A stretch of DNA of 64,000 nt from contig DATDRW010000069.1 in the NCBI GenBank assembly GCA_035291545.1, forward strand, positions 2,348 through 66,347, written 5' to 3'. Both the position numbers and the translations under genes were made by a program. The stretch is from Acidimicrobiia bacterium (lineage in GTDB: Bacteria > Actinomycetota > Acidimicrobiia > Spongiisociales > UBA11373). Positions 1-45,161 of this stretch are shown here, piece after piece; positions within the stretch are counted from its first letter, which is position 1; each line of letters begins with the position of its first letter. Under the pieces are notes generated by a model that was given only the letters and a program-made list of their open reading frames with translations, was not told where the DNA came from and searched no databases.

Positions 1-340
1 GCCTCAGGCTGGTAATAGTCGTAGTACGAGACGAAGTACTCGACCCGGTTGGCCGGGAAGAACTGGCGGAACTCGTTGGCGAGCTGGGCGCCCAGGGCCT
101 TGTTGGGAGCGAGGACCAGCGTGGGCCGTTGCACCTTCTCGATGAGCCAAGCGATGGTCGCCGACTTCCCGGAGCCGGTGATGCCGAGCAGCGTCTGGAA
201 CCGCTCCCCCGCCTCCACGCCCTCGGCGAGCCGGGCGATCGCCTGTGGCTGATCTCCGGCGGGACTGAAGTCGGAGACGACCTGGAACGGGTTCACCGGG
301 CAACGATACCCGGGGGCCAGGACGCGAATCACACGGCGGT
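1..340 (-). CDS. uvrB: Excinuclease ABC subunit B, N-terminal part. The gene continues beyond the window start.
   Basis: The reverse-complement translation of 1-340 reads [111 protein letters not shown]. This is the canonical UvrB N-terminus (Walker A and the YYDYYQPEA motif). The frame is absent from the ORF track because it is not terminated inside the window. The start is GTG at about 340, or the internal GTG at about 307. Confidence 0.85.
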
Positions 341-913
341 GATCTCGTCCCAGATCCGCCGACACTGCACGCCAAGGCCCGCCTCGTCGCCGCTGTTGTC
401 GATCACCCAATCGGCGGCCGCGAGCCATTCGCCTCGCGACACTTGCCGGCTCATGACTCGGCCCACGTCGCCTGCGGACATGCCGCCGCCGCGGGCGATG
501 GTGCGCTCGATCCTCGTCGCGTCCGGTGCGTCCACCACGATCCACGGCCACCCGCGCCCGATGAGGTCGCGCAAGACGGGCACCTCGACGAGCACGATGT
601 CGCCCGGGTGGGCGTCGACCGCGGCGACGATGACTCGGCGGATCCCCGGGCCGGTGATCCCCTCGAGCTCTCGCAGCTGCGCGGCATCGGCGAAGACAAT
701 CCGGCCGAGCGCGCTCCGGTCGATCCCGCCGGATGCGTCGACCGCCTCCGGCCACCGAGCCGTCACCGCCGCCGTTTCGGAGGTCCCGGGCGCCAGCACC
801 CTGCGCCCCGCCTCGTCGCCGGACACCACTACCGCCCCGAAAGAGACGAAGTGGGCCGCCGCGGCCGACTTGCCGCTCCCGATACCGCCGCCGAGGAAGA
901 ATTGCCCGTCCAC
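329..913 (-). CDS. coaE: Dephospho-CoA kinase
   Basis: ORF 329..1009 contains the P-loop [10 protein letters not shown] near its N-terminus and the overall CoaE pattern. The start is trimmed to the GTG (V33) just upstream of the P-loop. Its stop lies close to or overlaps the uvrB start. Confidence 0.75.
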
Positions 914-923
914 CGGGGCGAGG

Positions 924-2798
924 CTAATGGGCCGTGTCGCCGGTCCGGACGAGGCCGGCCAGCACGTGAAACGCGCGGGCCACCCTCGACCGGGGGCTGA
1001 GCGCCACAACCGGGATCCCCTCGTTCACGGACTGTGGCACCAGCCGGTCGGACGGGATCGAGCCCGCCACGCGGAGCCCCAGGCTTCGTTCGAGCTCGAC
1101 GAGGTCGAGTCTCGCCTTGGCGTTGACCCGATTGACCACGAGCTGGATACGACCCATCGGGAATCCGGCGCCGCGGAGCGCGTCCAGGGCGATCTTGGCG
1201 TTCTTCACCGACGGGAGGTCCATGTCGACCACGACGAGGACGTCGTCGGCCTGTTCCAGAACCGTGATCAGGTGATCGTCGAAGATCGGCGGGGTGTCGA
1301 TCACGACGACCTCGTAGAGCGCGCGCAGTCGATCGATGATGGCTGCGATGAGCTTCGCCGGAACCTCGTCCTCACTGGTGGGAAGGACCGGGGCGGGAAG
1401 GACGCGCAACCCGCTCTCGTGGCGGAGGAGCATCGACTCGAACCGGGCATCGGAGAGGTCATCGATCTTCCCCACGAAGTCCAGGAGGGTCCGCGACGGG
1501 TCCAACTGCAGCATGAGCGCCACGTCACCGAACTGGAGATCGGTGTCCACGATGACGACCCGGCCGTCGCCACGCTGGAAGGTCAGCGCCATGGCCAGGT
1601 TGGTGGCGGTGACCGTCTTGCCGGAGCCGCCCTTACCCGCCATGACCGCGACCACCCGGCCTCCCCCGGCGGCCGGCCGCAGAGCCGGGGAGGGTGTCGG
1701 CTCCGGGTGGGCGAAAGGTGAGGCGGCGGGAACGCCGCTCCGCAGCGGAGACTCATCCTCGGGGTGGACGACCACCAGTTCGTCGGCCTCGCGCCGCATC
1801 GTCGGTGGTGGTGCCGGTGGAGGGGGTGGGTACTCGAAGACGGGGTCAACGGTCGGCGGAGGAGACCACGCAGGAAGGGCCGGTGCCGCGTCGAAGACGG
1901 GGTCAACGGCTTGTGGTGCGAATGCCGGAGGAAGCGGCTGGACCACATTGACGACGGGGTCATCGGTCGGCGGAGGAGACCACGCAGGAAGGGCCGGTGC
2001 CGCATCGAAGACGGGGGCATCGGCTTGTGGCGCGAATGCCGGAGGAAGCGGCTGGACCACATCGACCGAGCGCGGGGAGTCGGCTTCGGCCGCGGTCAGA
2101 GGCACCCGAGCCGGGGGCGGAGTCCCGACGATCGGACCCGGCGGCGTCACGCGGCCGGCGCCGGCCACCACCTCGATCGGCGGGGATGCCACCACCGTTG
2201 GGGCGTCGTCGGGGACCTCCCGGGCATCGGTGCGCCCAACCGGCCTCGCCTCTTCCCACTCGGGATCCGGAGCGAACAGACGGTCGTCCCCGGGATGGGC
2301 AGGCGCCGGCAACGCCGGCGCGGTCGGGGCGGTGAATGCTGCGGGCACGGCAGAGCCCGCTACGGCCTCGATCTCCACCGAGACGACCGGACCATCGTCC
2401 GGTTCCCCGACCGCAGCCGGTCCGGGATGTCCGCCCCGCGCGGCGGCGAGGATCTCGTCGACCTTGCCCGGCGTGAGCGGCGTTTCCACGACGCCGGCGA
2501 GGCCCGTCTTCATCCCGGCGAGCATCATCCGGTTGGTGACCAGGTTTGCCACCAGTACCAGCGGGAGGGTGGGATCGACGGTTCGGAGATCCCGCGCCGC
2601 AACGATGCCGTCCTCAGAGCCGAGTGAGGGACCGAGCACTGCCACATCGATGCGTCCGCCGGGAACGATCTCGGCGGCCTCGTCGATACTGCGCGCGGTC
2701 AGGACCCGCTGCCCGGAAAACAGCATGCGGGCATCCTCGGCGAAACCCTGGTCGGCATCGACGACGAGCACGAGACGCCGCTGGGACTGCATCTCCAC
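924..2798 (-). CDS. Orphan CpaE/TadZ-like protein. It has an N-terminal atypical receiver domain, a Pro-rich repeat linker and a C-terminal MinD/ParA-family ATPase.
   Basis: The N-terminus (LVLVVDAD...IDVAVLG...) is CheY-like. The C-terminus has the deviant Walker A VMAGKGGSGKT plus the MinD/ParA core (DTDLQFGD, VVIDTPP). The architecture matches TadZ/CpaE and the mycobacterial 'septum site-determining' Ssd-like proteins. The linker contains a near-perfect duplicated 38-aa Pro/Ala-rich unit. Confidence 0.7.
   Translation of the reverse strand: MEMQSQRRLVLVVDADQGFAEDARMLFSGQRVLTARSIDEAAEIVPGGRIDVAVLGPSLGSEDGIVAARDLRTVDPTLPLVLVANLVTNRMMLAGMKTGLAGVVETPLTPGKVDEILAAARGGHPGPAAVGEPDDGPVVSVEIEAVAGSAVPAAFTAPTAPALPAPAHPGDDRLFAPDPEWEEARPVGRTDAREVPDDAPTVVASPPIEVVAGAGRVTPPGPIVGTPPPARVPLTAAEADSPRSVDVVQPLPPAFAPQADAPVFDAAPALPAWSPPPTDDPVVNVVQPLPPAFAPQAVDPVFDAAPALPAWSPPPTVDPVFEYPPPPPAPPPTMRREADELVVVHPEDESPLRSGVPAASPFAHPEPTPSPALRPAAGGGRVVAVMAGKGGSGKTVTATNLAMALTFQRGDGRVVIVDTDLQFGDVALMLQLDPSRTLLDFVGKIDDLSDARFESMLLRHESGLRVLPAPVLPTSEDEVPAKLIAAIIDRLRALYEVVVIDTPPIFDDHLITVLEQADDVLVVVDMDLPSVKNAKIALDALRGAGFPMGRIQLVVNRVNAKARLDLVELERSLGLRVAGSIPSDRLVPQSVNEGIPVVALSPRSRVARAFHVLAGLVRTGDTAH
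1834..2066. repeat. In-frame tandem direct repeat with a 114-bp period, about 2.05 copies at roughly 96 % identity, inside the REC-ParA gene.
   Basis: The seed tcgaagacggggtcaacgg recurs at 1834, 1891 and 2005. The 1891-2004 unit is repeated at 2005 onward. It encodes the duplicated peptide VVQPLPPAFAPQA.DPVFDAAPALPAWSPPPT. Confidence 0.85.
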
Positions 2799-2896
2799 CT
2801 TTCTCGATCCGCGTCCGGACCTACCGAAAACATCGGAGCCCAGATGGGGAACTTGAGGACGGAGGGCTAGTCACCTGGCAGAAGGTGACAGGCACT

Positions 2897-2958
2897 AGAA
2901 ACCAGAGACCAGAAACCAGATATCAGATGTCAGAGACCTGGTCTCTGATGCCTGATGC
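2897..2958. repeat. Intergenic oligonucleotide repeat array (ACCAGA and GATGCC units) containing a perfect 9-bp palindrome.
   Basis: The sequence is aaccagagaccagaaaccagatatcagatgtcagagacctggtctctgatgcctgatgcc. It lies in the spacer between the rpsA 3' end and the REC-ParA gene 5' end. Confidence 0.5.
2930..2948 (-). terminator. Terminator-like hairpin downstream of rpsA (perfect palindrome tcagagacc-t-ggtctctga). No U-tract follows.
   Basis: A 9-bp perfect inverted repeat centred at 2939, 11 nt beyond the rpsA stop. Confidence 0.3.
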
Positions 2959-4359
2959 CTACTTCCTCCCGATACCGCGCTGCTTGAGTTCTTCGAGGAT
3001 CGCCTCCAGGGAGGCGTCGGCGTTGAAGGTGGGCGCCGGTCCTTCGCCCGCCTCCTCCTTCTCGAACTCCTGGCTCTTCTTGCGCTTGCCGCGATCGCCT
3101 CCCGCCGCCGGAGGCGGACCGGGACGACGCTCTTCCTCCTGCCATTGGCTTCGGCTCTCCCACTCCGGAAGCGCCTGCTTGATCGACAGGCTGATGCGCC
3201 GGCGTTCGCCGTCGATCTCGGTGATCTTCACCTTGACCGGCTGCTCGACCGATAGCTCGAGTTCGGGGCTCTCCACGTGATGCATGGCGATCTCCGAGAC
3301 GTGCACCAGACCCTCGACACCATCGGCGACCGACACGAAGGCCCCAAACGGCACCGTCTTGGTGACCTTTCCATCGACGACGTCGCCGACACCGTGGGCG
3401 CCGCTGAACGACTCCCACGGGTCCTCGCGAGTCTGGCGGATCGACAGAGAAATGCGCTCGCGGTCAAGATCGACCTCGAGCACCTTCACCTTCACCTTGT
3501 CCCCGACGGACACCACCTCGGAGGGATGGCTGACGTGCTGCCAGGACAGCTCGGAAACGTGCACGAGGCCGTCCATCCCGCCCAAATCCACGAAGGCGCC
3601 GAAGTTGACCACCGACGAAACCACGCCGTCACGCATCTCACCGGCCTTGAGCTCGTCGAGGAAGGCCTGCCGCTGCTCCTGCTGCTCCTCCTCGAGGTAG
3701 GCGCGGCGTGAGAGCACGACGTTGTTGCGGTTCTTGTCGAGCTCGATCACCTTCGCCTCGAGCGTCTCTCCGATGTAGGGGTGAAGGTCGCGGACCCGGC
3801 GCAGCTCGACCAGGGACGCCGGGAGGAACCCGCGCAGGCCGATGTCGACGATGAGCCCACCCTTGACGACCTCGATGACCTGGCCGGTGACCGTGCCGGC
3901 CTCGTTCATGACCTTCTCGATGCGGCCCCAGGCGCGTTCGTACTGGGCGCGCTTCTTGGACAGGATGAGCCGTCCCTCGGAATCCTCCATCGTGAGGACC
4001 AGGGCCTCGATCTGCTCACCGACTTTGACGATGTCGGCGGGATTGACTGTATTCCGGATGGACAATTCCTTCGCAGGAATGACGCCCTCGGATTTGAAGC
4101 CGATGTCGACGAGGACCTCGTCGGGGTCCACCCGCACGACCGTGCCGGTGATCAGGCTTCCCTCTCTGAACTCCACCACGGTCCGCTCGACGGCGGCCGC
4201 GAAATCTTCGGCGGTGAGGTCGTTGGGGATGTCTCCCAACCCCCTCATGGCCGCGGCCTGGTCGGCCACCTGCAGGCGGTCGTTCGTCGGTGCGTCGCCT
4301 GCCGGCGCCTCGACGGCCGCTGCATCCGCAGCGGGCGCGGTCACTGTCTCTTTGGTCAT
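2959..4359 (-). CDS. rpsA: 30S ribosomal protein S1
   Basis: There are four S1 repeats (for example GTVVRVDPDEVLVDIG and GQVIEVVKGGLIVDIGLRGFLPAS) and a basic/acidic C-terminal tail. The start is placed at MTKETV (ATG 4359), which has a GAGGTGA Shine-Dalgarno sequence, rather than at the ORF-track Met. Confidence 0.9.
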   Translation of the reverse strand: MTKETVTAPAADAAAVEAPAGDAPTNDRLQVADQAAAMRGLGDIPNDLTAEDFAAAVERTVVEFREGSLITGTVVRVDPDEVLVDIGFKSEGVIPAKELSIRNTVNPADIVKVGEQIEALVLTMEDSEGRLILSKKRAQYERAWGRIEKVMNEAGTVTGQVIEVVKGGLIVDIGLRGFLPASLVELRRVRDLHPYIGETLEAKVIELDKNRNNVVLSRRAYLEEEQQEQRQAFLDELKAGEMRDGVVSSVVNFGAFVDLGGMDGLVHVSELSWQHVSHPSEVVSVGDKVKVKVLEVDLDRERISLSIRQTREDPWESFSGAHGVGDVVDGKVTKTVPFGAFVSVADGVEGLVHVSEIAMHHVESPELELSVEQPVKVKITEIDGERRRISLSIKQALPEWESRSQWQEEERRPGPPPAAGGDRGKRKKSQEFEKEEAGEGPAPTFNADASLEAILEELKQRGIGRK

Positions 4360-4386
4360 GGGCTTAGGTTCACCTCGAACGGGGGT

Positions 4387-4409
4387 CCCCGGACGCCAAG
4401 GGTCCGGGG
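4387..4409 (-). terminator. GC-rich hairpin (ccccggac-gccaagg-gtccgggg) between the polA stop and the rpsA start.
   Basis: An 8-bp stem with a 7-nt loop. No U-run follows, so it could equally be an rpsA leader structure. Confidence 0.25.
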
Positions 4410-4455
4410 GCGGGTCAGAGCGTACCACAGCGCCTCCGGCCGGGACCAGCCGGGT

Positions 4456-7071
4456 TCAGTGCCTGGCCTCCGCCAGGCTCGTCCCGACCCCCACCTCGGC
4501 CAGCAGCGGCACCCGGAGATCGACGATCCCCTCCATGACCTCGCGTACGGTGGCGGCCACCTCGTCCCGGGCCGGGATCGGCGCCTCGACGACGAGCTCG
4601 TCGTGCACCTGGAGGAGGATGGCCGCACCGGTGGCTTCGAGGCGTTCGTCGAGCACGATCATCGCCTTCTTGATGATGTCGGCCGCGGAGCCCTGGATCG
4701 GGGCGTTGAGCGCCATGCGTTCCCCCGCCTGCCGCTCCCGGAAGTTTCCGGAGACCAGCTCCGGCAGATAGCGACGCCGTCCCAGGATCGTCTCGGTGTA
4801 CCCGGTGTTGCGTGCCTCGGCGACGATCGACTCCATGAACGCTCGCACTCCGGCGAACTGCGAGAAGTAGGCCTCCATCTGCTCCCGGGCCTCCTCCTGG
4901 GAGATCTCGAGACGCTGGGCCAGCCCGTAGGCCTCCATGCCGTACAACAAACCGAAGTTGATCACCTTTGCCCGGCGGCGCATCTCGGGAGTGACGTCGC
5001 CGGCGGCGACCGCAAACACCCGCGCCGCGGTCTCGGTGTGCACGTCGGCTCCTCTCCGGAAGGCCTCGACCAGCGCCGGATCACCGCACAGGTGGGCGAG
5101 GATGCGCAGCTCGATCTGGCTGTAGTCGGCAACCACGAACACGTGACCGGGTGACGCCACGAATGCCCTGCGGATGGTCCGGCCCTCCTCGGAGCGCACC
5201 GGAATGTTCTGCATGTTGGGCTGCTCGGATGAGATTCGCCCGGTCGAGGCTCCGGTCTGATTGAATATGCAGTGGATGCGGCCGTCTGCCGCGATCAGGG
5301 GCAGAAGCCCGTCGACGTAGGTGGAACGCAGCTTCTCCAGCTCCCGGAACCGGAGCAGATGGTCGACCACGGGGTGGTCGTCGGCCAGTTTCTGCAACAC
5401 CGAGGCGTCGGTGGAGGGCTGGCCCTTGGGGGTCTTCTTCAACACCGGGAGCCCGAGCCGCTCGAACAGCACCTCCCGCAGCTGGAGCGTCGAGTTGACG
5501 TTGAACGCTTCCCCGGCCGCCTGGTAGATCTGCTTCTCCAGCGTGGCGAGGCGGTCGCGCAGGCTTTCTCCCAGCTCCTCGAGGTAGTCCCGGTCGATGC
5601 CGATCCCGGCCTCCTCCATCCGGGCGAGAACCCGGACCAGCGGCAGCTCAACCTCATCGAACAGCCGCCGCCCACCCCGGGCGTCCAGCTGTTCCCCCAG
5701 AGGTGCCACGAGGCGCGCCACTGCCGTGGCACGGCGCCCCGCCGCCTCCAGGTCCGGACCGGCCGCTTCGAAGGCGAGCGTGCCCTGGGTGCCTTGCGTC
5801 GATCGCTCCCCCTCGGCGGCGATCTCGATCCCGAGCACGCGCCCGGCAAGGTCGCTCAGCGGCTGGTTGCCGGCTCCGGGATTGATCACGAAGGCGGCGA
5901 GTTGGGTGTCGAAGGCGAGACCGCGCAGATCGAGTCCGGCGTCGAACAACGCCCGAACCAACGGCTTGGCGTCGTGGAGGGCCTTCGGCACGGCCGGATC
6001 GGCGAGCGCGTCGGCCAGCGAGCCCAGCCGGTCGAAGGCAACGAAGGTGGCCCCGTCGTCCTTGGCCACCGCGATGCCGACGAGGTCGCCGTCCTCCCAC
6101 ACGGGATCGAGTGCCAGCATCCCCGGTCCGGCAGCGGCGAGGGCATCGGCTCCCGATCCCGACCCCACCTCCACCTCGATCACCTCGTCGCGCTCCGCGG
6201 CCGCTCCCCCGATCTCCTGGAGGCGCTGCCACAACGATCGGAAGGCGAGCTCGTCGAAGACCCGGCGCACCTCCTGCGGATCCCAGGGCAGCAGGCGCAG
6301 CCGTTCCGGATCGGTCTCGACGGCGACGTCGTCGACGAGGCGGGAGAGATCGCGGTTGAGAAAGGCCTGCTCCCGCGCCCCCGCCAGACTCTCCTTGAGC
6401 CTGGGGGTCTGCTCGTCGAGGTGCTCGTAGATCCCCTCGAGGGTGCCGTACCCCGCAACGAGTCGGGAGGCGGTCTTCTCCCCCACCCCGGGAACGCCGG
6501 GGAGGTTGTCCGAGGAGTCGCCCCGCAGTGCCGCGTAGTCCGGATACTGCTCCGGAGTCACCCCGTACCTGTCGAGCACGTAAGCGGCGTCCGCCACCAC
6601 AATGTCGCTGATCCCCCGCCGCGTGTAGTAGACCTTGATCCGCCCCCCGATCAGTTGGAATGCGTCGCGGTCGCCGGTGACCACGAGCACCTCCCATCCG
6701 GAAGCGGCGGCGCCCCGGGCCACGGTGGCGATGATGTCGTCGGCCTCCCAGCCCGGCGCGATGAACTGGGCCAGCCGGAGTACGTCGGCCACCTCGTGGA
6801 TCAGCGGCAGCTGGCTGCGGAATAGGTCGGGCGCCGCCTCACGCTGTGCCTTGTACTCGGTGTACCGCTCGGCACGGAAGGTCCGCTCCGGACTGTCCCA
6901 GGCGACCGCCATGGCGTCCGGATGCTCCTCGCCGAGCAGTTTGATGATCATCGAGGTGAACCCGTAGACGGCGTTCGTCACCTGTCCGGTCGGTGTCGCC
7001 AGGTCGCTCGGCAGCGCATAGAAGGCGCGGTAGGCCAGAGAATGCCCGTCGATCAGGGCGAGAGTCGGCAT
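4456..7071 (-). CDS. polA: DNA polymerase I
   Basis: The 871-aa ORF has a 5'-3' exonuclease N-terminus (MPTLALIDGHSLAYRAFYAL) and a family A polymerase C-terminus (motif A DYSQIELR, motif B RRAAKVINFGLLYG, and QVHDEL). Confidence 0.95.
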   Translation of the reverse strand: MPTLALIDGHSLAYRAFYALPSDLATPTGQVTNAVYGFTSMIIKLLGEEHPDAMAVAWDSPERTFRAERYTEYKAQREAAPDLFRSQLPLIHEVADVLRLAQFIAPGWEADDIIATVARGAAASGWEVLVVTGDRDAFQLIGGRIKVYYTRRGISDIVVADAAYVLDRYGVTPEQYPDYAALRGDSSDNLPGVPGVGEKTASRLVAGYGTLEGIYEHLDEQTPRLKESLAGAREQAFLNRDLSRLVDDVAVETDPERLRLLPWDPQEVRRVFDELAFRSLWQRLQEIGGAAAERDEVIEVEVGSGSGADALAAAGPGMLALDPVWEDGDLVGIAVAKDDGATFVAFDRLGSLADALADPAVPKALHDAKPLVRALFDAGLDLRGLAFDTQLAAFVINPGAGNQPLSDLAGRVLGIEIAAEGERSTQGTQGTLAFEAAGPDLEAAGRRATAVARLVAPLGEQLDARGGRRLFDEVELPLVRVLARMEEAGIGIDRDYLEELGESLRDRLATLEKQIYQAAGEAFNVNSTLQLREVLFERLGLPVLKKTPKGQPSTDASVLQKLADDHPVVDHLLRFRELEKLRSTYVDGLLPLIAADGRIHCIFNQTGASTGRISSEQPNMQNIPVRSEEGRTIRRAFVASPGHVFVVADYSQIELRILAHLCGDPALVEAFRRGADVHTETAARVFAVAAGDVTPEMRRRAKVINFGLLYGMEAYGLAQRLEISQEEAREQMEAYFSQFAGVRAFMESIVAEARNTGYTETILGRRRYLPELVSGNFRERQAGERMALNAPIQGSAADIIKKAMIVLDERLEATGAAILLQVHDELVVEAPIPARDEVAATVREVMEGIVDLRVPLLAEVGVGTSLAEARH

Positions 7072-7148: not shown

Positions 7149-7445
7149 TCAGGGGTCGGAGTCGTGGGGGCCGAGCCTCTCCAGCAGCTTGGCCCGTTTC
7201 GTGTTCAGGCGATCGATCCGGGCGGACAGGTCCGCCACCAGCCCGCGGAAGCGCGCCACGTCGCGGCTCGTGTCCCGGGCGTCCTCGCGCTCGATCGGGC
7301 CCCCCACTGCAGCGTCGCGCACGGCATCGTCCTCGAGATGCTGGTGGACCCCAAGCTCCTCCTCGGTCTGCCGAACCACCTCGCGCAGACGGGCGATCTC
7401 GTCGGTGACGGCGAAGAGCCGCTTCTCCAGGCGTCGCACCCGCGC
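7149..7445 (-). CDS. Hypothetical small Arg/Glu-rich coiled-coil protein, roughly 95 aa with an uncertain start.
   Basis: ORF 7149..7622 overlaps the tRNA at its 5' end, so the start was trimmed to GTG about 7445 (VRRLEKRLFAVTDEIARLREVVRQTEEELG...). The heptad-like charge pattern looks protein-like, but I do not recognise a family. Confidence 0.3.
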   Translation of the reverse strand, partial: ARVRRLEKRLFAVTDEIARLREVVRQTEEELGVHQHLEDDAVRDAAVGGPIEREDARDTSRDVARFRGLVADLSARIDRLNTKRAKLLERLGPHDSDP

Positions 7446-7499
7446 ATGGTACGGACCAGATGCCGATCCGGGGCAGCGGGTCGTATCATCCGGCGACGA

Positions 7500-7582
7500 A
7501 CCGGGATGGCGGAATGGAAGACGCGGCGGACTCAAAATCCGTTGGGCGAAAGCCCGTGGGGGTTCGACTCCCCCTCCCGGTA
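7500..7582 (+). tRNA. tRNA-Leu (anticodon CAA)
   Basis: The cloverleaf can be read directly. The acceptor stem is ACCGGGA/TCCCGGT and the anticodon loop CTCAAAA gives anticodon CAA. A long variable arm (GTTGGGCGAAAGCCCGTGG) is typical of class II Leu tRNAs. The T-arm is GGGGGTTCGACTCCCCC, the discriminator is A, and CCA is not encoded. Confidence 0.75.
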
Positions 7583-7589
7583 CGCGAGA

Positions 7590-7740
7590 GGCACCAGGCA
7601 ATAGGCACCAGGCATTAGGCACCAGGTACGCACGGACGTTCTGATTTCGCGATACCGACCCTGACCGGTCTCCGGCATCCGGTCTCCGGCATCCGGCCTC
7701 CGGCCTCCGCCTCTGGTGCCTGGTGCCTCGTGCCTGGTGC
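7590..7740. repeat. Composite inverted-repeat element downstream of tRNA-Leu and of nadE, about 150 bp. It is built from three GGCACCAGGCA(a/t)TA units, then two CCGGTCTCCGGCAT units, then four CCTGGTGCC units.
   Basis: The left arm (GGCACCAGG repeats) is the reverse complement of the right arm (CCTGGTGCC repeats), so a long imperfect hairpin can form. The position suits a bidirectional terminator for the converging tRNA and nadE. Confidence 0.55.
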
Positions 7741-10346: not shown

Positions 10347-11504
10347 CCACGCCGCCACCTGATCGACGTCCTTGTCGCCGCGGCCACTCAGGCACATCAC
10401 GACCGTCTTGTGGGCGAGCGCGACCCGTTCCCGGGCGATCCAGGCGAGGGCGTGCGCCGGTTCCAGCGCCGGGATGATGCCTTCGGTACGGCACAGCAGG
10501 TCCATGGCGGCGACGGCTTCGCGGTCGGTGGCCGACTCGTAGCGGGCGATGCCGGCGTCCTTGAAGTAGGCATGTTCCGGCCCGACGCCGGGGTAGTCGA
10601 GCCCCGCCGAGATCGAATGCGCCTCGAGCACCTGGCCCTCATCGTCCTGGAGCAAGTAGGTGCGGGCACCGTGCAATACGCCCGGCGAACCGGCGGAGAG
10701 CGATGCACCGTGGCGGCCGGTGGCGATTCCATCGCCTCCCGCTTCCACACCCACCAGTCGGACCCCGCTGCCGACGAACGGGTGGAACATGCCCATGGAG
10801 TTCGACCCGCCCCCGACGCAGGCGACCACGACATCGGGTACCCGGCTCCCCAGTTGAGCGATCGTCTCCTCCCCGATCACCCGTTGGAACTCGCGCACGA
10901 TCCAGGGAAAGGGGTGGGGGCCGACCACCGAGCCGATGATGTAGTGCGTCGTCTCCACGGTGGCCACCCAGTCCCGGAGGGCGGCACTCACCGCATCCTT
11001 CAGGGTCCCCGCCCCCGACGTCACCGGGGTCACCACGGCGCCGAGCATCCGCATCCGTTCCACGTTGAGGGCCTGGCGCCGGATGTCGACCTCCCCCATG
11101 AACACCTCACACTCGAGCCCGAGGAGGGCACAGGCGGTGGCGGTGGCCACCCCGTGCTGGCCGGCCCCGGTCTCGGCGATCACCCGCGGTTTGCCCATCC
11201 GCTGGGCGAGCAACCCCTGCCCGACCGTGTTGTTGATCTTGTGTGCGCCGGTGTGGGCGAGATCCTCCCGCTTCAGCAGCAGATCGATCCCCAACTCCGC
11301 AGACAACCGTCGTGCCGGATACAGCGGCGTCGGTCTCCCCACGAAGTCCCTCAGCAGTGCAGCCAGCTCCGACTGGAATCCGGAGTCGGCGACGGCGGCG
11401 ACGAATGCCGACTCCAGTTCGGCGAGCGCCGGCATCAGCGTCTCCGGGGCGAACGCTCCCCCGTACTCCCCGAACCGCCCGCGGTGGTCGGGTCGAGCCG
11501 TCAT
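10332..11504 (-). CDS. trpB: Tryptophan synthase beta chain
   Basis: From [16 protein letters not shown] onward, ORF 10332..12245 has the PLP lysine motif HTGAHKINN and GGGSNSMG. The ATG at 11504 overlaps the trpF stop as ATGA. The 247 aa upstream of it is a shadow read across trpF. Confidence 0.9.
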
Positions 11505-24934: not shown

Positions 24935-25210
24935 AGGGTCGAGCGCATCGTCGTCCCGCCGCTGTTCGGCGATAGACCGCACGTGGAGCGCAGCCCGCAG
25001 CGCCACCAGCAGCAAGAACAGCACCAGTCCGAGCACGGCGAGGAGTTCCGGGCCGTCGAAATACGACGTGTGGCAGGCACCGATCCCCCCGGTGCAAAGC
25101 CCGAACCCATCGCCGCCTCCGGCGAGATCGAGCAGCACGATCAGCGGCAGCAAGGCCGCCGCCACGATCCCCACAATGATGCCGATGACGAGGATCCGGA
25201 TCGAGGTCAC
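24899..25210 (-). CDS. Possible small membrane protein. It overlaps the eamA 3' end and the call is weak.
   Basis: It has a GTG start and one long hydrophobic stretch. No family is recognised, so it may be a shadow ORF. Confidence 0.2.
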   Translation of the reverse strand: MTSIRILVIGIIVGIVAAALLPLIVLLDLAGGGDGFGLCTGGIGACHTSYFDGPELLAVLGLVLFLLLVALRAALHVRSIAEQRRDDDALDPSVGGRERLGRG

Positions 25211-25353
25211 GGGGCAACGGTAGAACGGTTGGCGCCTTTGTCGGGGACACCCGGGCCGGCACCGGGGACAAGTCGACCGCCGGTCCCTCCTCCGATTGCC
25301 AGCGGCTACCCACGGCGGTACCGTCGCCGCACGGTGAATCACAAGCGTGTGAG

Positions 25354-27000
25354 ATGACCTCGGCGTCGACCTTCTATCAAGAGCCCTTCAGCGGGGACGA
25401 GGCCGCACTCCTCGGTCGCTACTTCACCAACACCGACGGCCCGGTCTTTGCGCTCATCAACCTCCCTGAAGTCGTCAAGGGTGCCCTCTTCGCCCGCTAC
25501 AGCCGCAGCCCCAAGTCGTTGCGGAGGCTGTTCCTCGACGAGTTCTCGGCGGCACCCGAGGTTGGGATCGGTGAGATCGCCGGGGCCCTCGGTGCCGAGG
25601 ACGGCACGGTCCGGATGGCCCGGGCTGAAGAGTTGTACGCCAGAGTGTTCAACCAGTACGGGGACGACTCGGTGGCCCAACTCGGGGCGATGCATCTCGC
25701 CTGCGAGCAGGCATCGAACGTGCTCACCAAGGTGCTCGAGTGGGGCCGCCTGGCCGCATACCTCGAACAGAGCACTCGCTACATGTTCTACGACGAGCGC
25801 CTCGGCGGCCGCTACCGCTACCGAGTCCCACCGGAGGTGGCCGGCTCGAGCCTGGAGGCCGACTTCACGAAGACCCTCGATTCCCTGTTCACCACCTACG
25901 GTGCGCTCACGCCCGGCCTGACGACCTACTACGAGACGCTATTCCCCAAGGCGGAAGGCGACTCGGGATTCGTGTACCGCAGCACGATCCGCGCCAGGGT
26001 GTGCGACGACCTCCGCGGCCTGCTCCCGGCCGCCACGATCTCCAACGTCGGCATCCATGGCTCCGGACAGGCCTTCGAGATGCTGCTCCTGCGGATGCGG
26101 TCGCATCCGCTCGCCGAGGTGCGCAGCTACGCCGATCTCATGCTCACCGAGCTGCGCAAGGTTGCCCCGGCCTTCCTCCGCCGGGTCGACGTCCCCGACC
26201 GCGGGGGCGACTGGTCGCGCTATCTCGAAGAGACCGCGGCAGCGATGCGCCTCATTGGTCGAGAATTCGACGCCACCCCACCCGACCGCCCCGAGGTGAC
26301 CCTCGTGGAGTGGGATCCCGAGGCGGAGGCCAAGGTCGCCGCAGCAGCGCTCTATGCGGTCACCGATCTCCCCGACGACGTGCTCCTCGAGCGGGTGCGG
26401 GCACTCCCCGCGACGGAACGGCTCCGGCTCATCACCGGCTACACGGGCGACCGCCGCAATCGCCGTCACAGGCCCGGAAGGGCGTGGGAGCGCACCGGCT
26501 ACCGGTTTGACATCCTGTGCGACTACGGCATCTTCCGCGACCTGCAGCGCCATCGCATGCTCACGATCGAGTGGCAGCGGCTCGGCACCCACCATGGGTT
26601 CATCGTGCCTCCGTCGATCGACGAGCTCGGCGAGCAGACACGCTGGCGAGAGGCGATGGAGGGCGCGGCCGTGCTCGCCGGTCGGCTGGCTGCAGCGCTC
26701 GGTCCCGAGGTCGCCCAGTACGCGGTCCCCTTCGCCTACCGGGTTCGCTTCGTCATGCAGCTCAACGTGCGCGAGGCGCTTCACCTCCTGGAACTCCGTA
26801 CTGCGCCGGGCGGGCACCCCGACTACCGCAGGGTATGCCAGGAGATGCATCGCCTGATCCGCGACCAGGCGGGACATGTCGCGCTCGCCGAGGCGATGCG
26901 GTTCGTCGATCACTCCGACACTGATCTGGGGCGCCTCGACGGCGAGCGGCGGGCCGCGGCCAGACGCGCCGCCGCCGGGGTGGGCGATCCCGACGACTAG
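25354..27000 (+). CDS. Tandem-duplicated ThyX-like protein (548 aa) from the FAD-dependent thymidylate synthase (Thy1) family. It is an intragenic fusion of two ThyX domains.
   Basis: Half 1 has the ARYS N-motif. Where canonical ThyX reads RHRIASYNELSGRY, half 1 reads WGRLAAYLEQSTRY. It also has the C-motif LRMRSHPLAEVRSYA. Half 2 has FRDLQRHRMLTIEWQRL, with RHR intact but the Ser..RY lost, and LRTAPGGHPDYRRVCQEM. Confidence 0.6.
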   Translation: MTSASTFYQEPFSGDEAALLGRYFTNTDGPVFALINLPEVVKGALFARYSRSPKSLRRLFLDEFSAAPEVGIGEIAGALGAEDGTVRMARAEELYARVFNQYGDDSVAQLGAMHLACEQASNVLTKVLEWGRLAAYLEQSTRYMFYDERLGGRYRYRVPPEVAGSSLEADFTKTLDSLFTTYGALTPGLTTYYETLFPKAEGDSGFVYRSTIRARVCDDLRGLLPAATISNVGIHGSGQAFEMLLLRMRSHPLAEVRSYADLMLTELRKVAPAFLRRVDVPDRGGDWSRYLEETAAAMRLIGREFDATPPDRPEVTLVEWDPEAEAKVAAAALYAVTDLPDDVLLERVRALPATERLRLITGYTGDRRNRRHRPGRAWERTGYRFDILCDYGIFRDLQRHRMLTIEWQRLGTHHGFIVPPSIDELGEQTRWREAMEGAAVLAGRLAAALGPEVAQYAVPFAYRVRFVMQLNVREALHLLELRTAPGGHPDYRRVCQEMHRLIRDQAGHVALAEAMRFVDHSDTDLGRLDGERRAAARRAAAGVGDPDD

Positions 27001-27060
27001 TGCCGCGTCACGCAACGTCTGGCGCGGTCACGACGGCCCCCGACGCCACCGGACGGGGCA

Positions 27061-27294
27061 TTAGCCGGCCAGCGGGATACGCAGCACCAATCGATCCCCC
27101 TCGACCGCCGCCTCGGCGTCTGCGATCAGCGAGTAGTCGACGAAGTCCTGCTGCGCCGACGCCAGGAAGCGGCGGCGGGCCTCCCCCTCCAGGGGCGGCA
27201 CACCTCGCTCCTTGACGGCGGCGGCGCGGTCGCGGAAACGCTTGCGGAAAACGTCGATGTCGAACTCGGCCACGTTCCTCCCCGACGGCTTCAC
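27061..27294 (-). CDS. Hypothetical small protein (77 aa)
   Basis: It is a clean ORF with protein-like composition, and no family is recognised. Confidence 0.35.
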   Translation of the reverse strand: MKPSGRNVAEFDIDVFRKRFRDRAAAVKERGVPPLEGEARRRFLASAQQDFVDYSLIADAEAAVEGDRLVLRIPLAG

Positions 27295-27387
27295 ACCAGG
27301 CTAGGCCGTTCGCCGCCTACCCTCCCCCCTCGGCAGCCGTCCCCGTCCGGCCGGTCCGGTTGCGAGTGTCCTTGTAGTCGAGCCTGG

Positions 27388-28242
27388 ATGAGAGCGGTGC
27401 TGAACCGACGGCTGCTGCTGGTCACGGGCAAGGGAGGCACGGGCAAGAGCGCCGTGGCCGCCTCGCTGGCCGTCGCCGCCGGCCGGCGCGGATTGCGGGT
27501 CCTCGCCCTGGCGATGGACCATGGAGCCGGCCTGGCCCGTCACCTCCGGGCCACCACGCTCGGTCCGGCACCACAACGCTGCGGAGACGTCCACGTCGCC
27601 GTCGTCGACCCGGTCGCCGCCCTCGACGAGTACCTGCGGATGCGGGTACGGGTGCCCCGCCTGGCCGCGGTGAGCCGGGTCTTCGCCGCGGTCGTCGAGA
27701 CCGTGCCCGGTGTGCGTGACACCACCATGATCGGGAAGGTCGTCTTCGAGTCGACGCGCCCCCGGTGGGATCTCGTCGTTGCCGACGCTCCCCCGACCGG
27801 GCAGGTGTCCTCCTTCCTCGAGGCCCCGGCGACCATCGCCGGCCTCGTCCCCGGTGGCGCCGTCCGCGACCAGGCCGCGTGGATGCGTTCCGTGTTGGCC
27901 GACCCTCAACACACCGGACTCGTCGTCGTCGCCACACCGGAGGAGTTGCCGGTGACCGAGGCGAAGTCGTTCATGGCCGGGGTCACCGCGAGCCGTACCG
28001 CCGCCGTGGCGGCGTCGGTGGCCAACAAGGTGCTGCCGGCGCCCGATTTCGACGGTTCCGCTCTTGCCGGCACCACCGACTCGTCGAGCCGCCAGGCGGG
28101 CGCACTCCACCTCGCCCTCATCGAACGACAACAGGGCCACCTGATGGACCTGAAGGCGGATCGCACCATCCCGTTCCTCTTCGGGATGCGCACGGCCGGT
28201 GAGACCACAGAGCGCATCGCCGACCTCTGGGGGACGGTTTGA
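27388..28242 (+). CDS. ArsA/Get3-family ATPase, the first gene of an adjacent pair.
   Basis: It has the deviant Walker A VTGKGGTGKS and an ArsA-like core (DAPPTG). It is the same architecture as the mycobacterial Rv3679. Confidence 0.75.
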   Translation: MRAVLNRRLLLVTGKGGTGKSAVAASLAVAAGRRGLRVLALAMDHGAGLARHLRATTLGPAPQRCGDVHVAVVDPVAALDEYLRMRVRVPRLAAVSRVFAAVVETVPGVRDTTMIGKVVFESTRPRWDLVVADAPPTGQVSSFLEAPATIAGLVPGGAVRDQAAWMRSVLADPQHTGLVVVATPEELPVTEAKSFMAGVTASRTAAVAASVANKVLPAPDFDGSALAGTTDSSSRQAGALHLALIERQQGHLMDLKADRTIPFLFGMRTAGETTERIADLWGTV

Positions 28243-29246
28243 CCCGGGTCACCCTCGTCATGGGCTCGGGCGGGGTCGGAAAGACGACGATCGCGGCCGG
28301 TCTCGCCGCATTGTCGGCGCAGCGGGGGTCACGCACCCTGGCGATCACGGTCGACCCGGCGCGTCGCCTCGCCGACGCCTTGGGGGTGGCGGTCGGCCTC
28401 GATCCCGGGGCCGTTGCCGGCTGGCCGCGACTCGATGCCTCCATGCTCGACGCCGCCGCCGCGTGGGAGAGCATCGCCCGTACCCACGCCGACACGGCCA
28501 CCGCGGCACGGCTCCTCACCAACCCGTACTTTCGAGCGGTCGCCGACCGCTTCCCGTCGGGCCAGGCCTACGCCGCCGGCGAGGAAGTCCTTCGTCATGC
28601 CCACGGCGGTTCTTACGACCACATCGTGGTCGACACCCCGCCGGCCGACGGGGGCCTGACGTTTCTCGCTGCACCGCGCAACATCAGGACCCTCATCGCG
28701 GGACGGGCGCTCCGCCTCCTCACCGGTCCCCGTCTCCCGGGGCGCCGACTCATCTACTCGATGACCGCCCGCCCCGCGTTGATGATCGCCGACTCGGTGC
28801 TCGGGGGCCGCCTCCTCGAGGACGTAGCCGAGTTCTTGCTCGACCTGAGCACGATCTACCCCGGGGTCGCCCGGAGGTCGCGCGAGGTGGAGCGTCTGTT
28901 CTCCGCGGCGACGATCGTTGCGGTGGCAACGCCCGATCCGGGGCCGATCGCCGAGGCCCGGCGGCTCATCACGGATCGGATCGGCACCACCGACTCGCCG
29001 CAAATCATGGTGTTCAACCGGGTGCTCCCCCCGGAATGGGCGAGCGCTCCCAGAGCCGCCGACCCGATCGGCGCCAACCTGCAGCGCTGGGCGGCCGAGG
29101 CGAGCCGCCACGACGCCCTGCGACGCGCCTTCGCCGCCAACACCGGCGTCAATCCTTTGACCATCCCCTGGTTGCCCGAGGCCCCCGGCACTCCGCAAGG
29201 GCTCGCCGACTTGATGGCCGCCGCCGGACTCGAACCCCTCAGCTGA
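28239..29246 (+). CDS. ArsA/Get3-family ATPase, the second gene of the pair.
   Basis: The P-loop is MGSGGVGKTT and the core is VDTPP. The TTG start overlaps the first gene's stop as TTGA. Confidence 0.7.
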   Translation: MTRVTLVMGSGGVGKTTIAAGLAALSAQRGSRTLAITVDPARRLADALGVAVGLDPGAVAGWPRLDASMLDAAAAWESIARTHADTATAARLLTNPYFRAVADRFPSGQAYAAGEEVLRHAHGGSYDHIVVDTPPADGGLTFLAAPRNIRTLIAGRALRLLTGPRLPGRRLIYSMTARPALMIADSVLGGRLLEDVAEFLLDLSTIYPGVARRSREVERLFSAATIVAVATPDPGPIAEARRLITDRIGTTDSPQIMVFNRVLPPEWASAPRAADPIGANLQRWAAEASRHDALRRAFAANTGVNPLTIPWLPEAPGTPQGLADLMAAAGLEPLS

Positions 29247-41164: not shown

Positions 41165-41911
41165 TCAGCCTTCTTCAGATGCCTGGTAATAGCCGAGTTC
41201 CGTGAGGCGGCGCCGCTCCTCGCGGCTGATGTTGACGCTCGCCGGGGTGACGAGCACGACTCCCTGGCCGATCTTGCGCATCGACCCACCCAGCGCGTAG
41301 GTGAGGCCGCTGGAGAAGTCCACGAGACGGCGCACCATCGCCGGCTCGACCTTGCGCAGATCGAGTACCACCGGGACGCTCGCCCGGATGTGATCCGCCA
41401 GCACCTGGGCGTCGTTGTAGGACCGGGCGACGATGACCTGCGACTCCGGATCGGCACTACTCATCGACCGCGCCGGCGGGCGATCAGGCGGCTGGACCAC
41501 CACCCCGGCATCGGTGAGGGCCCGATCCGCCATCGGCCGGCGCTTCGGCGCCATGGGCGGCTCGACCCGCCGACCCTGCACCGTGGGATAGCCGGCCCGG
41601 ATCACCTGGGGCTCGCGCGGGGCACTCCCGACCGCCCGATGCGGCCCGGAGCCCGGAGAGACCTGGACCCGCGACGCGTCCGGCGGCTCCTCGGCGTGAT
41701 ACGCCCCCTTGCTCCGCATCGGTCGCGCCGGCTCGGCGGCGGGCTCCTGCGTCCGCGGTGGACGTTGCATCGTCGGGCCGGGTGGCTCGGAGGCGGGAGC
41801 GGAAGGCCGCCGGGGCTCGGGGCGGGCTCGCGACGTCTCGGGTTCATCGATCCCGACCCGATCCTCATCGACGAGTCCAAGATAGAACATCGTCTTGTGC
41901 CACAAGCCCAT
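41165..41911 (-). CDS. sepF: Cell division protein SepF
   Basis: It has the N-terminus MGLWHKTMFYLGL, a Pro-rich linker and a C-terminal SepF domain (VIVARSYNDAQVLADHIRASVPVVLDL). Confidence 0.85.
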   Translation of the reverse strand: MGLWHKTMFYLGLVDEDRVGIDEPETSRARPEPRRPSAPASEPPGPTMQRPPRTQEPAAEPARPMRSKGAYHAEEPPDASRVQVSPGSGPHRAVGSAPREPQVIRAGYPTVQGRRVEPPMAPKRRPMADRALTDAGVVVQPPDRPPARSMSSADPESQVIVARSYNDAQVLADHIRASVPVVLDLRKVEPAMVRRLVDFSSGLTYALGGSMRKIGQGVVLVTPASVNISREERRRLTELGYYQASEEG

Positions 41912-41916
41912 TGGCC

Positions 41917-42585
41917 TCAACCCTCTTCCGGGGATACTCGAAAGATAGCCCGTCCGACACGCAAGATTGTTGCACCCTCCTCGACTGCGACTTCGAAGTC
42001 GTCGGTCATTCCCATCGACAGCTCCGTGAGGGTCGGGAACTCACCGCGCAAGCGATCGCGGAGCTCGCGCAGCGCGGCGAAATGCGGCCGCGCCGCTTCA
42101 CCGCTGGTGGCGAGCGGTGGGATCGTCATCAAGCCGCGCACGTCGATGCCCATACCGAGCGCGGCGTCGATGAGTGGGGCGGCATCGCCCGGGAAGACCC
42201 CCGCCTTCTGCGGCTCCCCGGACACGTTGACCTGCACCAGGGCCGGAGGAGAAACGCCGCCGCCGCGAACCCAGGAGGAGGCGAGCTCGAGCCGGTCGAG
42301 GGAGTGGAGCAGGTGTACGACCGGGCGGACCCGCGGCACCTTGTTCGTCTGCAGACGTCCCACGAAATGCCAGCGTATGTCACCGGGTAGCCGCGGAACC
42401 CGGTCGGTGAGATCGTGGGCGCGGTTCTCGCCGAAGTCGCGCACACCCGCCTCGTGCGCCGCGAGCACCGCACCATCGGAAGCACTCTTGCTCACGGCCA
42501 CCACGACCACCGATGCGGGAGCGCGGCCGCTGCGAGCCGCCGCAGCAGCCACCCGCAGGCGAACCGAGCTCAGTCCGGTATCCAT
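41917..42585 (-). CDS. yggS: YggS-family PLP homeostasis protein
   Basis: It has the PLP lysine context VVVAVSKSA and FVGRLQTNK, with an alanine-racemase N-terminal fold. Confidence 0.85.
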   Translation of the reverse strand: MDTGLSSVRLRVAAAAARSGRAPASVVVVAVSKSASDGAVLAAHEAGVRDFGENRAHDLTDRVPRLPGDIRWHFVGRLQTNKVPRVRPVVHLLHSLDRLELASSWVRGGGVSPPALVQVNVSGEPQKAGVFPGDAAPLIDAALGMGIDVRGLMTIPPLATSGEAARPHFAALRELRDRLRGEFPTLTELSMGMTDDFEVAVEEGATILRVGRAIFRVSPEEG

Positions 42586-43196
42586 GCCACCGTCACCTGC
42601 CGCTCCGTCGTCCCGTTCCTCCGGTATGAGTGGAACCCGTCATCCGACATCGTGCACGACTCGGCGACCCACACTTCGAGGCCCGCCAGATCCCTCCGGA
42701 TCGCCCGGCGCAGGTCGACACTCATCGTGCCCCAGGTGGTGAGAGCCTCGCACCCCGGCAACCGCGCCGCCACCTCGGCCCCGACCTCGAAGCAACAGGG
42801 CCCGATACCGGGACCGATCGCAGCCGTGTTCGGCGCACCTCCTGCCGCCGTCATCGCGGCGCGCAATGTCCGCACCACTCCGTCGGCGGCGCCCCTCCAT
42901 CCGGCGTGAGCGATCCCGACGATCCCATCTCCCACGAGCACGATCGGGAAGCAGTCGGCAGTCCCCACCGCCAGCGGGAGCCCGGGAACCTTGGTGTACG
43001 CGGCGTCTGCCTCACCGAGGACGCCGGCTGCGGTGGCGCAGACCACCGTCGCGCCGTGCACCTGGCGCATCCAGGCCCAGTCGGGAACGACTCCGGCGGC
43101 GGCGGAGAGACGCCGGCGCGCACGCTCGTCGCGACGGGCATCACCGTCGGAGGCGGTTCCGAACACCACCCCGGGCACGGTCCCGGGGCGGATCAT
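42570..43196 (-). CDS. pgeF: YfiH/PgeF-family purine nucleoside phosphorylase and laccase-domain protein
   Basis: It has TADCFPIVL and [12 protein letters not shown] 43196 overlaps the ftsZ stop as ATGA. Confidence 0.8.
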
Positions 43197-44314: not shown

Positions 44315-44402
44315 GTTGCGGCCTCCTCGGGCAAAACTTAGACCTGTCGGGTCCTCGCCCGATGGGAACGCGAAAAAGGATAGTCGGGCCTCGACCGAAA
44401 CA

Positions 44403-45161
44403 TCACACCTCGTTGTCGGAACCCTCGACGGCAGCTTGAGGACTGGTCGTCTCCGTACCGTCGTTGATCGCGGGGCGCAGGGGTGACGACACGTCGATCG
44501 TCGCGCCGAAGGGGATTTCCACCTGAAGGAGGGCGAGCAGGGTGCGCCCCTTGTCGGCGAGGTCGATGGGGTACCCGAGCCGCACGGGATGGCCGGACGT
44601 CTCGGTCCACAACTCGGTGCCGCGAAGCTCGACGGTCATGGTGCCCCCGATGTCGTCGCGCAAGGTGTTGGCGAGATCGACGATCTCGCCCCAGGTCGGG
44701 TCGGCCGGCCGGTCACCCGGCACCAGATCGGGGAAGGCGAGCGCGGCCCGCAGATGTCCGCCACCGGGCGCCTCCCCGGTATCGAGCACAGTCCCGTCGG
44801 AGGCGACCAGCATCCAGGTGGTGATCCCCTCGATCCACGCCACCGGCACCCGCTCGAGCACCTCGACGACGAGCCGATCCGGCCACACCCGCTCCACGCG
44901 GACGTCGGCTACCCAAGGGTCGGCGGCGACGGCCCGCGCGACGCGCCCGGTGTCGACCCAGATCAGGATCGCACCTTCGCCGATCCCGGCTTCGGCGATG
45001 AACGGCGCAGGATCGGCATGCACCGCCCCGACGATCTCGATCTCGTGCAACGCCAACCACGGCGAGTGGAGGGCGAAACCGGCGGCGGCGACGAGCGCCG
45101 CCAGGGTCATCCACGGCCACACCCTGCGCCCCGGCTGCCCGGTGGTCGGCCCGTCGGTCAA
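44403..45161 (-). CDS. ftsQ: Cell division protein FtsQ
   Basis: It has a single transmembrane segment ([14 protein letters not shown]) and a POTRA/FtsQ periplasmic domain. The start is either TTG 45161, coupled to the murB stop as TTGA, or ATG 45110. Confidence 0.7.

Follow-up and report, generated by a model that had tools for sequence, protein, structure and literature searches.

A lone, linker-expanded cpaE/tadZ descendant between rpsA and coaE in Acidimicrobiia, most likely the exapted remnant of a Tad locus

What is a TadZ-like ATPase doing among housekeeping genes, with no pilus gene beside it? The question is raised by a stretch of 64,000 nucleotides from an Acidimicrobiia bacterium (assembly GCA_035291545.1, contig DATDRW010000069.1), here called the window, in which polA, rpsA, a lone gene, coaE and the start of uvrB follow one another on one strand. 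The lone gene (924..2792, minus strand; 622 aa from an ATG at 2792) encodes an atypical receiver domain, a Pro/Ala-rich linker and a MinD/ParA-type ATPase. The original prediction, made from the window alone, considered the gene to be inserted into a housekeeping block and took its position next to rpsA and polA, with the shared strand, to suggest a housekeeping regulator. Comparison with related genomes contradicts both ideas: the rpsA-coaE slot holds a complete Tad locus across the Acidimicrobiia, the gene is a remnant of that locus, and its position, inherited from a pilus locus, is silent on function. In our favored explanation the gene is a vertically inherited cpaE/tadZ, the sole remnant of the rpsA-coaE Tad locus, and has most likely, though by no means certainly, been exapted to serve on its own as a positioning or assembly adaptor for another partner.

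In a protein search, more than 70 homologs of 500-770 aa shared this architecture, all of them from Acidimicrobiia or Actinomycetota metagenome-assembled genomes (MAGs); the search also gave more distant matches of 390-435 aa, many named CpaE in their source records. All three long homologs that were looked up have the gene order polA-rpsA-X-coaE-uvrB, and all three short homologs that were looked up occupy the same slot inside a complete Tad locus, ordered rpsA - RcpC/CpaB - CpaE - CpaF (T2SSE) - TadB - TadC - unknown - Flp - response regulator/histidine kinase - coaE - uvrB. The response regulator in these loci is of the NarL type, the unknown protein (about 460 aa) is present in two of the three, and one of the three has TadE and TadG upstream of polA. 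The GTDB species genomes were scanned with an alignment of the family, and the best 80 loci were annotated by tblastn with Pfam-labelled reference genes. The tad arrangement was found in 72 of the 80; 71 of these are flanked by rpsA and/or coaE, the exception being an incomplete contig without rpsA and coaE. In eight loci the long gene stands alone between rpsA and coaE. Overall, a full Tad locus was observed in the rpsA-coaE slot of about 75 Acidimicrobiia genomes, and 14 long-form loci (the window and 13 others) have no tad gene at all, a state found in none of the short-form loci. The longer of the long-form loci are free of tad genes for 7-10 kb around the gene, and none of the long-form genomes appears twice among the best 80 loci, below which weaker paralogs would fall.

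The Tad locus of Acidimicrobiia (loci L006-L008 and L017-L088 of our set; for example, L032 2363-21075) deserves a short description of its own. It is embedded in polA-rpsA-coaE-uvrB and straddles polA-rpsA, with tadE-tadG and a gene for a 125-aa protein upstream of polA in the tad-bearing relatives. A conserved protein of about 450 aa without a Pfam family is encoded after tadC, there are one to four copies of flp, and the NarL-type response regulator and a HisKA_3 kinase are on the opposite strand. A locus of the Acidimicrobiia type was also found in MAGs labelled Armatimonadetes, Kiloniellales, Gemmatimonadales, Acidobacteriota or Acidobacteria (L031, L069, L072, L079, L080 and L087); polA or cpaE from these contigs clusters with Acidimicrobiia, and the contigs are probably mis-binned. 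A full-text literature search found no paper on Acidimicrobiia Tad loci, on an orphan linker-expanded TadZ or on the rpsA-coaE placement.

Descent was analyzed by neighbour joining on the ATPase domain, with distant CpaE proteins as the root and 100 bootstraps. The 11 complete long forms make up a single clade (100/100) that is nested among tad-locus cpaE genes and sister to the main short-form clade; a further group of genes from tad loci in this slot (Microthrixaceae, Aquihabitans and others) branches outside both. In a concatenated rpsA and polA tree, the nine long-form genomes having both genes fall on one bipartition (100/100). The resemblance to TadZ/CpaE seen in the original prediction is thus upheld as orthology by synteny and tree, and we are confident, as far as sequences can tell, that the window gene is orthologous to tad-locus cpaE/tadZ by position as well as by phylogeny. 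The simplest history would have the Tad locus in this slot as the ancestral state, lost once in one lineage, with vertical inheritance of the lone gene since. Because cpaE lies between cpaB and cpaF, a lone cpaE needs deletions on both sides, and a third deletion is required where tadE-tadG formerly lay upstream of polA. Multiple flanking deletions that spared cpaE would point to selection on cpaE specifically.

Purifying selection is visible in the ratio of nonsynonymous to synonymous substitution rates (dN/dS, by Nei-Gojobori; dS is about 1 and the values are rough). The six closest pairs give an ATPase dN/dS of 0.02-0.12, and three pairs at greater distance give 0.17-0.27; the values are 0.03-0.20 for the receiver in the closest pairs and 0.2-0.55 for the linker. 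Low ATPase dN/dS and more than 70 full-length homologs contradict a chance open reading frame (ORF), and these ratios argue strongly for a functional gene with purifying selection on both folded domains. At similar divergence the ATPase rate relative to rpsA and polA is 1.22 in the long forms, roughly the pace of the two housekeeping proteins, versus 0.42 in the short forms, which makes the long forms about three times faster. As judged by these rates, the constraint on the long-form ATPase has changed, yet has not been lost.

The reading frame itself can be started at two codons. An in-frame GTG at 2798 gives an ORF at 924-2798 (minus strand) of 624 aa. An exact record look-up gave no match for the window protein, and a 99%-identical metagenomic relative, P0001, served instead; it is called from the ATG two codons downstream of the GTG, as a protein of 622 aa. 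The sequence GAAAGG stands 5 nt upstream of the ATG at 2792. Two large plus-strand ORFs over the gene, 129-1721 and 1336-2856, were rejected as high-GC artefacts by codon-position GC and homology.

The architecture given in the original prediction, a receiver, a Pro/Ala-rich linker and a MinD/ParA ATPase, is confirmed by Pfam, AlphaFold2 and the Walker A motif. The atypical (pseudo-)receiver domain comprises aa 5-119 (2436..2780, minus strand) by Pfam, CheY alignment and the AlphaFold2 confidence score (predicted local distance difference test, pLDDT, above 90); the Pfam Response_reg match at aa 10-115 is just over threshold (32.7 bits, cutoff 30.2). It is followed by an acidic Pro/Ala-rich linker, aa 121-374 (254 aa; 1671..2432, minus strand), disordered according to AlphaFold2 and the alignment, and by the MinD/ParA-type ATPase domain, aa 375-618 (939..1670, minus strand), identified by Pfam, AlphaFold2 and fold match, with AAA_31, CbiA and ParA matches at aa 381-614. 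In the AlphaFold2 model, built on a 64-sequence alignment, pLDDT exceeds 90 for aa 1-120 and 375-618, aa 121-374 are predicted to be disordered, and the receiver has a confidently predicted flavodoxin-like fold. Receiver positions were numbered by alignment to CheY. In place of the Asp and the switch Thr and Lys of a canonical response regulator, the window protein has Gly at the phosphoacceptor position D57 (within LGPS, nt 2625-2636), Ala at T87 and Thr at K109. Gly at D57 is found in 10/10 aligned long forms and 69/72 short forms, and Ala at T87 together with Thr at K109 in 10/10 long forms, position 109 being Thr or Ala across both forms. The ATPase domain contains the deviant Walker A motif GKGGSGKT (1614-1637, minus strand), the Walker A' motif VVIVDTDLQFGD (1524-1559, minus strand) and the Walker B motif VVVIDTPP (1287-1310, minus strand). 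Walker A with both lysines, A' and B are invariant, and from its sequence the protein has everything predicted to be required for ATP binding and for a ParA/MinD sandwich dimer, together with a conserved pseudo-receiver of the protein-interaction kind.

The long forms differ from their orthologs in tad loci mainly between the two domains and at the C-terminus. The linker has about 25 aa in the short forms versus 132-406 aa in the long forms (Pro 24%, Ala 17%, Asp+Glu 13%, Lys+Arg 5%), and it is hardly alignable apart from a polyproline island, YPPPPPAPPP (1803..1832, minus strand), the best-conserved linker stretch, which is present in 52/80 long versus 6/116 short forms. Over this island, at residues 311-330 of the 622-aa model, pLDDT climbs to 67-72. 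An in-frame tandem duplication of 114 nt occupies 1839..2066 (minus strand) of the window linker, with two in-register units of 38 aa that are 93-94% identical; Tandem Repeats Finder delimits the array as 1834-2066. Its alignment columns are almost empty in 59 other long forms, so that the duplication is lineage-specific, and in locus L016 the linker has undergone a tandem duplication of its own, likewise in frame (gene positions 451-646; 84 nt x 2.3, 98% identical). As the duplications in the window and in L016 are independent, the linker enlarges recurrently by slippage or duplication. A basic-aromatic C-terminal tail, for example KRRWF(G/R) or GLFGRK, is found in 99/116 short forms. On inspection, no comparable tail was seen in the long forms, including 12 automatic matches, which are explained by the Phe of the ATPase domain end or by an over-extended or partial sequence. 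Caulobacter CpaE is described as attached to the inner membrane by a C-terminal amphipathic helix and as assembling six dimers, with REC-REC contacts, into a ring that encloses CpaF (PMC13170226). A missing tail and a long tether between REC and ATPase would fit release from such a ring. In addition, 21 positions are fixed in the long forms and rare in the short forms, mostly by conservative replacements.

The region upstream of the gene holds one conserved element, which was detected only by comparison of the upstream regions: cTCAAG-N15/16-(t/g)CCGA(T/A), present in 11/11 long-form loci. In the window this promoter-like motif, CTCAAGTTCCCCATCTGGGCTCCGAT (CTCA-N16-TCCGA), lies at 2832..2857 (minus strand), about 35 nt before the start codon. 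Recast as CTCA-N16/17-NCCGA, the motif matches published queries for actinobacterial sigma-28-family promoters, and the window copy has one mismatch in the -10 element. The published queries are CTCA-N16-17-GCCGA for WhiG1 and T(A/C)AA-N16-GCCGA for WhiG2, and the search rule allows one -10 mismatch with the central CGA invariant (PMC12871210). WhiG-type sigma factors were reported to drive type IV pilus genes in Rubrobacter and both pilus and flagellar genes in Actinoplanes (PMC8325347, PMC12871210). The strict motif has 31 matches in 2.6 Mb of loci on both strands, 11 of which precede the long-form gene, and in the short-form loci 14 of 19 matches immediately precede cpaB, cpaF, flp or tadE. 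A slightly different pattern occurs in 10 of 66 rpsA-cpaB spacers, compared with 0.4 expected from shuffles. The lone gene thus seems, on motif evidence, to have kept the predicted promoter of the Tad operon. If a Tad-type promoter was kept, its cognate sigma factor must persist, and the gene would be switched on with what remains of the regulon. The promoter-like motif points to a pilus or motility regulon, the predicted sigma assignment being taken from a motif match.

Several further observations concern these upstream regions. In several short-form lineages CTCAA[GC]-N14-15-NCCGA[TA] stands directly upstream of cpaB, cpaF, flp or tadE; examples of the motif upstream of tad genes are L044 9001-9027, L060 11127-11153, L077 17256-17282 and L024 1895-1920. 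In the lineage L022-L076 a TTGAC-type -35 precedes cpaB instead. These patterns suggest promoter turnover within the Tad regulon. A second match in the window, 10833-10858 (minus strand), was dismissed as chance: it lies inside trpB, and two or more matches occurred in 3 of 100 shuffles. Directly after the rpsA stop codon is a hairpin (2896..2961, minus strand; 28-bp stem, z-score -4.05) built from short direct and inverted repeats, GGCATCAG and TCTGGTTTC, probably an rpsA terminator or processing element that would insulate the lone gene from rpsA. The closest GTDB relative (L011 4167-4480) has a similar repeat-rich palindromic element, partly N-masked, in the same spacer. A generic sigma-70 and intrinsic-terminator scan of 300-4600 found nothing, and Rfam matched only tRNA over the whole window, with no known RNA element in the spacer between rpsA and the gene.

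Taken together, exaptation would have proceeded as follows. The ancestor of an uncultured clade would have lost the genes to either side of cpaE, namely cpaB and, opposite it, cpaF-tadB-tadC-unknown-flp-response regulator-histidine kinase, and would have kept cpaE. Its product would cycle between monomer and ATP dimer like other ParA/MinD ATPases, and the pseudo-receiver, perhaps with the polyproline island, may hold partners on a long flexible tether. Direct membrane binding is probably gone, the gene would still be expressed with the former pilus or motility regulon, and the cargo would no longer be the local Tad machine but another partner. A more specific form of this explanation, that Tad was lost completely and that a TadZ/CpaE with a sigma-28/WhiG-type promoter was recast as a ParA/MinD-type organiser for a different cargo, is offered tentatively, as somewhat short of an even chance on these sequences. 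Candidate cargos could be the flagellum, another envelope machine, or a pole or division factor; an FlhG-like flagellar role, suggested by promoter type alone, is speculation. The original idea of a positional ATPase acting independently of pili stays plausible, as the gene was kept and remodelled after local pilus loss.

A number of points speak against exaptation. The absence of tad genes was seen at the scale of loci and contigs, and a Tad or other type IV filament system elsewhere could be served. Retention of a pilus-type promoter would also fit continued pilus service, the conservative changes on the ATPase surface give no sign of a remodelled partner surface, and the threefold faster ATPase evolution could mean relaxed constraint and not a new one. 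Moreover, the trees are neighbour-joining only, dS is near 1, and all genomes are MAGs, with sequence as the only evidence. The strongest alternative is that the gene, left at the former site, is still a working TadZ/CpaE and positions or assembles a Tad or other type IV filament machine whose genes lie in another part of the genome; we consider this unlikely, though well worth keeping in view. Orthology to tad-locus cpaE, the retained motif shared with tad genes and the conservative ATPase surface all favor it, and scattered tad genes have a precedent in Bdellovibrio (bioRxiv 10.64898/2026.07.08.737194). However, a cpaE homolog lies near cpaF, usually directly upstream, in 76 tad loci of the slot and in 67 of the 80 loci of a metagenome scan with a CpaF alignment (80 loci from at least 600 matches; among the matches listed, most come from distant phyla, at 50-64% CpaF identity, and the 13 loci without a cpaE homolog mostly end at a contig edge). 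Since cpaE is usually near cpaF, a tad locus that had moved should have brought a cpaE with it. Also gone is the C-terminal tail, which should attach to the membrane beside CpaF, and a linker of 130-400 aa now parts two domains that pack in the CpaE ring around CpaF (PMC13170226). No tad gene was found within 7-10 kb in the longer long-form loci or among the scanned ORFs of the 64-kb window. Between a new cargo, which we hold to be possible at a little under even chances, and continued type IV filament service, which we hold to be doubtful, the split is about even and leans to exaptation.

Two other explanations have less in their favor. A positional regulator of divisome or nucleoid that has nothing to do with pili and owes its place in the polA-rpsA-coaE-uvrB block to a housekeeping role would agree with the conservation of the gene, its orphan state at the locus and its probable co-transcription with coaE, and the M. 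tuberculosis CpaE homolog Ssd, as its NCBIfam name (TIGR03815) also suggests, is a proposed septum-site determinant. On the other hand, the position was inherited from a pilus locus, not chosen, and the promoter-like motif resembles those that precede tad genes and is not of a housekeeping kind. No minC, minE or parB lies nearby, the dcw/ftsZ cluster is 40 kb off, the MinD, Ssd and ParA family scores are far under their cutoffs, and no DNA-binding or FtsZ-binding feature was identified in the protein. We regard this explanation as improbable. Nothing was found in support of the divisome or nucleoid role that had been suggested, and either is a possible target only as one of many conceivable new cargos. 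The faster long-form ATPase, relative to rpsA and polA, and the variable, repeat-prone linker could be taken as marks of a decaying, functionless relic that escaped the deletions. But the gene is intact in 11/11 complete loci and in 60 full-length long-form protein clusters, its ATPase dN/dS is 0.02-0.12 in the closest pairs, the catalytic motifs are invariant, the upstream motif is present in 11/11 loci, and two flanking deletions spared exactly the lone cpaE. Decay is hardly credible and is effectively refuted by dN/dS and motif conservation.

Comparison with known systems supports descent from TadZ/CpaE and sets the window protein apart from each of its relatives. Like Caulobacter CpaE and Eubacterium rectale TadZ, it combines an atypical receiver without the phosphoacceptor Asp with a ParA/MinD ATPase having a deviant Walker A motif. 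In contrast to these proteins, it has no cpaF, tadB/C or flp partners at the locus, its disordered linker has 254 aa in place of about 25 aa, and it misses the basic-aromatic C-terminal tail. Its KGGSGKT keeps the canonical P-loop Lys, whereas the TadZ consensus is quoted as K/RGGXGXS/T (bioRxiv 10.64898/2026.07.08.737194). The protein is therefore a TadZ/CpaE by descent that fails two usual features of the name, the tad-locus context and the membrane tail. Among the matches listed, by sequence or by fold, the E. rectale TadZ structure does not occur, and closeness to solved TadZ structures is taken from the literature. The closest solved structure is PDB 3ea0, a ParA-family ATPase of Chlorobium tepidum (sequence E 2e-20; fold template-modelling (TM) score 0.88-0.89; root-mean-square deviation 2.2 A), which differs in having the ATPase domain only and whose deposit gives no function.

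The best NCBIfam matches of the window protein are MinD, Ssd and BcsQ, all far under cutoffs, and by score or context it belongs to none of the MinD, Ssd, ParA and FlhG families. MinD shares the fold (TM 0.76-0.84) and the full KGGxGK[ST] motif, but the scores are 93.6 versus 212.9 bits for TIGR01968 and 95.4 versus 201.75 bits for TIGR01969, MinD has no receiver domain, and the window protein lacks a C-terminal membrane-targeting sequence, while the scanned window ORFs include neither minC nor minE. The ParA partition ATPase family gives 52.2 versus 180 bits (NF041546), with no ParB-family match among the scanned ORFs. FlhG/FleN have a MinD-like fold (TM 0.72-0.80) and are members of flagellar regulons, to which the sigma-28-type promoter-like motif of the window gene offers a parallel; however, they are not orthologous, as the window gene descends from cpaE. 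Ssd (Rv3660c; TIGR03815, CpaE_hom_Actino) is, like our candidate, an actinobacterial CpaE-family ATPase proposed to act outside pilus assembly. It differs in that its own gene still belongs to a tad-like locus, and the window protein reaches 73.4 bits where the cutoff is 154.45. A rearranged TadZ was described in Bdellovibrio TadZA, where the flexible linker matters and the TadZ region with the linker binds the polar hub RomR (bioRxiv 10.64898/2026.07.08.737194). TadZ is there without a receiver and fused to TadA, whereas the window protein has kept the receiver, has the linker between receiver and ATPase, and has no TadA at its locus. TadZA is nevertheless a precedent for TadZ re-wiring through linkers.

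The remaining genes of the window are as follows. Upstream on the same strand are rpsA, encoding ribosomal protein S1 (2959..4359, minus strand), and polA (4456..7071, minus strand), both identified by Pfam. Downstream, coaE (329..913, minus strand) begins with a GTG at 913, and its stop codon is overlapped by the GTG start of uvrB, the 5' part of which occupies 1..332 (minus strand). The close association of the lone gene with coaE that was proposed earlier stands as to strand and proximity, except that the gap after the stop codon of the lone gene is 10 nt, not 11; the spacing makes co-transcription of the two genes likely. Gene content was taken from Pfam scans of about 44 window ORFs, which matched nadE, trp genes, a two-component system, dnaE, ileS, sepF, ftsZ and the dcw cluster. 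None of these ORFs matched T2SSE, T2SSF, Flp, TadE or RcpC, in agreement with the earlier statement that pilus genes are locally absent, and the 7.6 kb on the uvrB side of the gene in the P0001 contig is also free of tad genes. The scanned ORFs likewise include no minC, minD, minE or parB family and no sigma-28 gene, and the window offers no flagellar gene context.

The dcw cluster is complete (mraZ, mraW, PBP, murE/F, mraY, ftsW, murC, murB, ftsZ), with sepF downstream, at 41165-58425 (minus strand), 40 kb from the lone gene and unlinked to it. A tRNA-Leu(CAA) gene lies at 7500-7583 (plus strand) between polA and nadE, and a 157-aa minus-strand ORF that overlaps it (7149-7622) was discarded as a high-GC artefact. 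Two adjoining genes for ArsA-like ATPases of the ParA superfamily are preceded by an ORF for a ThyX-like protein of about 600 aa with two Thy1 stretches (27001-29246 and 25189-27000, plus strand). Near the window end, an ORF with a weak resolvase domain (27.6 bits) stands beside a MoxR-type AAA ATPase gene (60138-61031 and 61865-62872, plus strand).

Changes of cargo in the ParA/MinD family are rarely visible, and here the states before and after are found in sister lineages: a compact, tail-bearing CpaE in a complete Tad operon, and a lone, linker-expanded, tail-less CpaE with the same address and motif. The two forms constitute a comparative system for distinguishing which features tie TadZ to the pilus and which permit its re-use. 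They also advise caution, as function is not to be read from a housekeeping neighbourhood that is only a deletion scar. The Tad locus of Acidimicrobiia, apparently driven by a sigma-28/WhiG-type promoter, would extend the reports on type IV pili of Rubrobacter and Actinoplanes to another class. Finally, exaptation of the lone gene, if true, would be a documented cargo switch of a ParA/MinD ATPase, with the ancestral state still visible in sister genomes.

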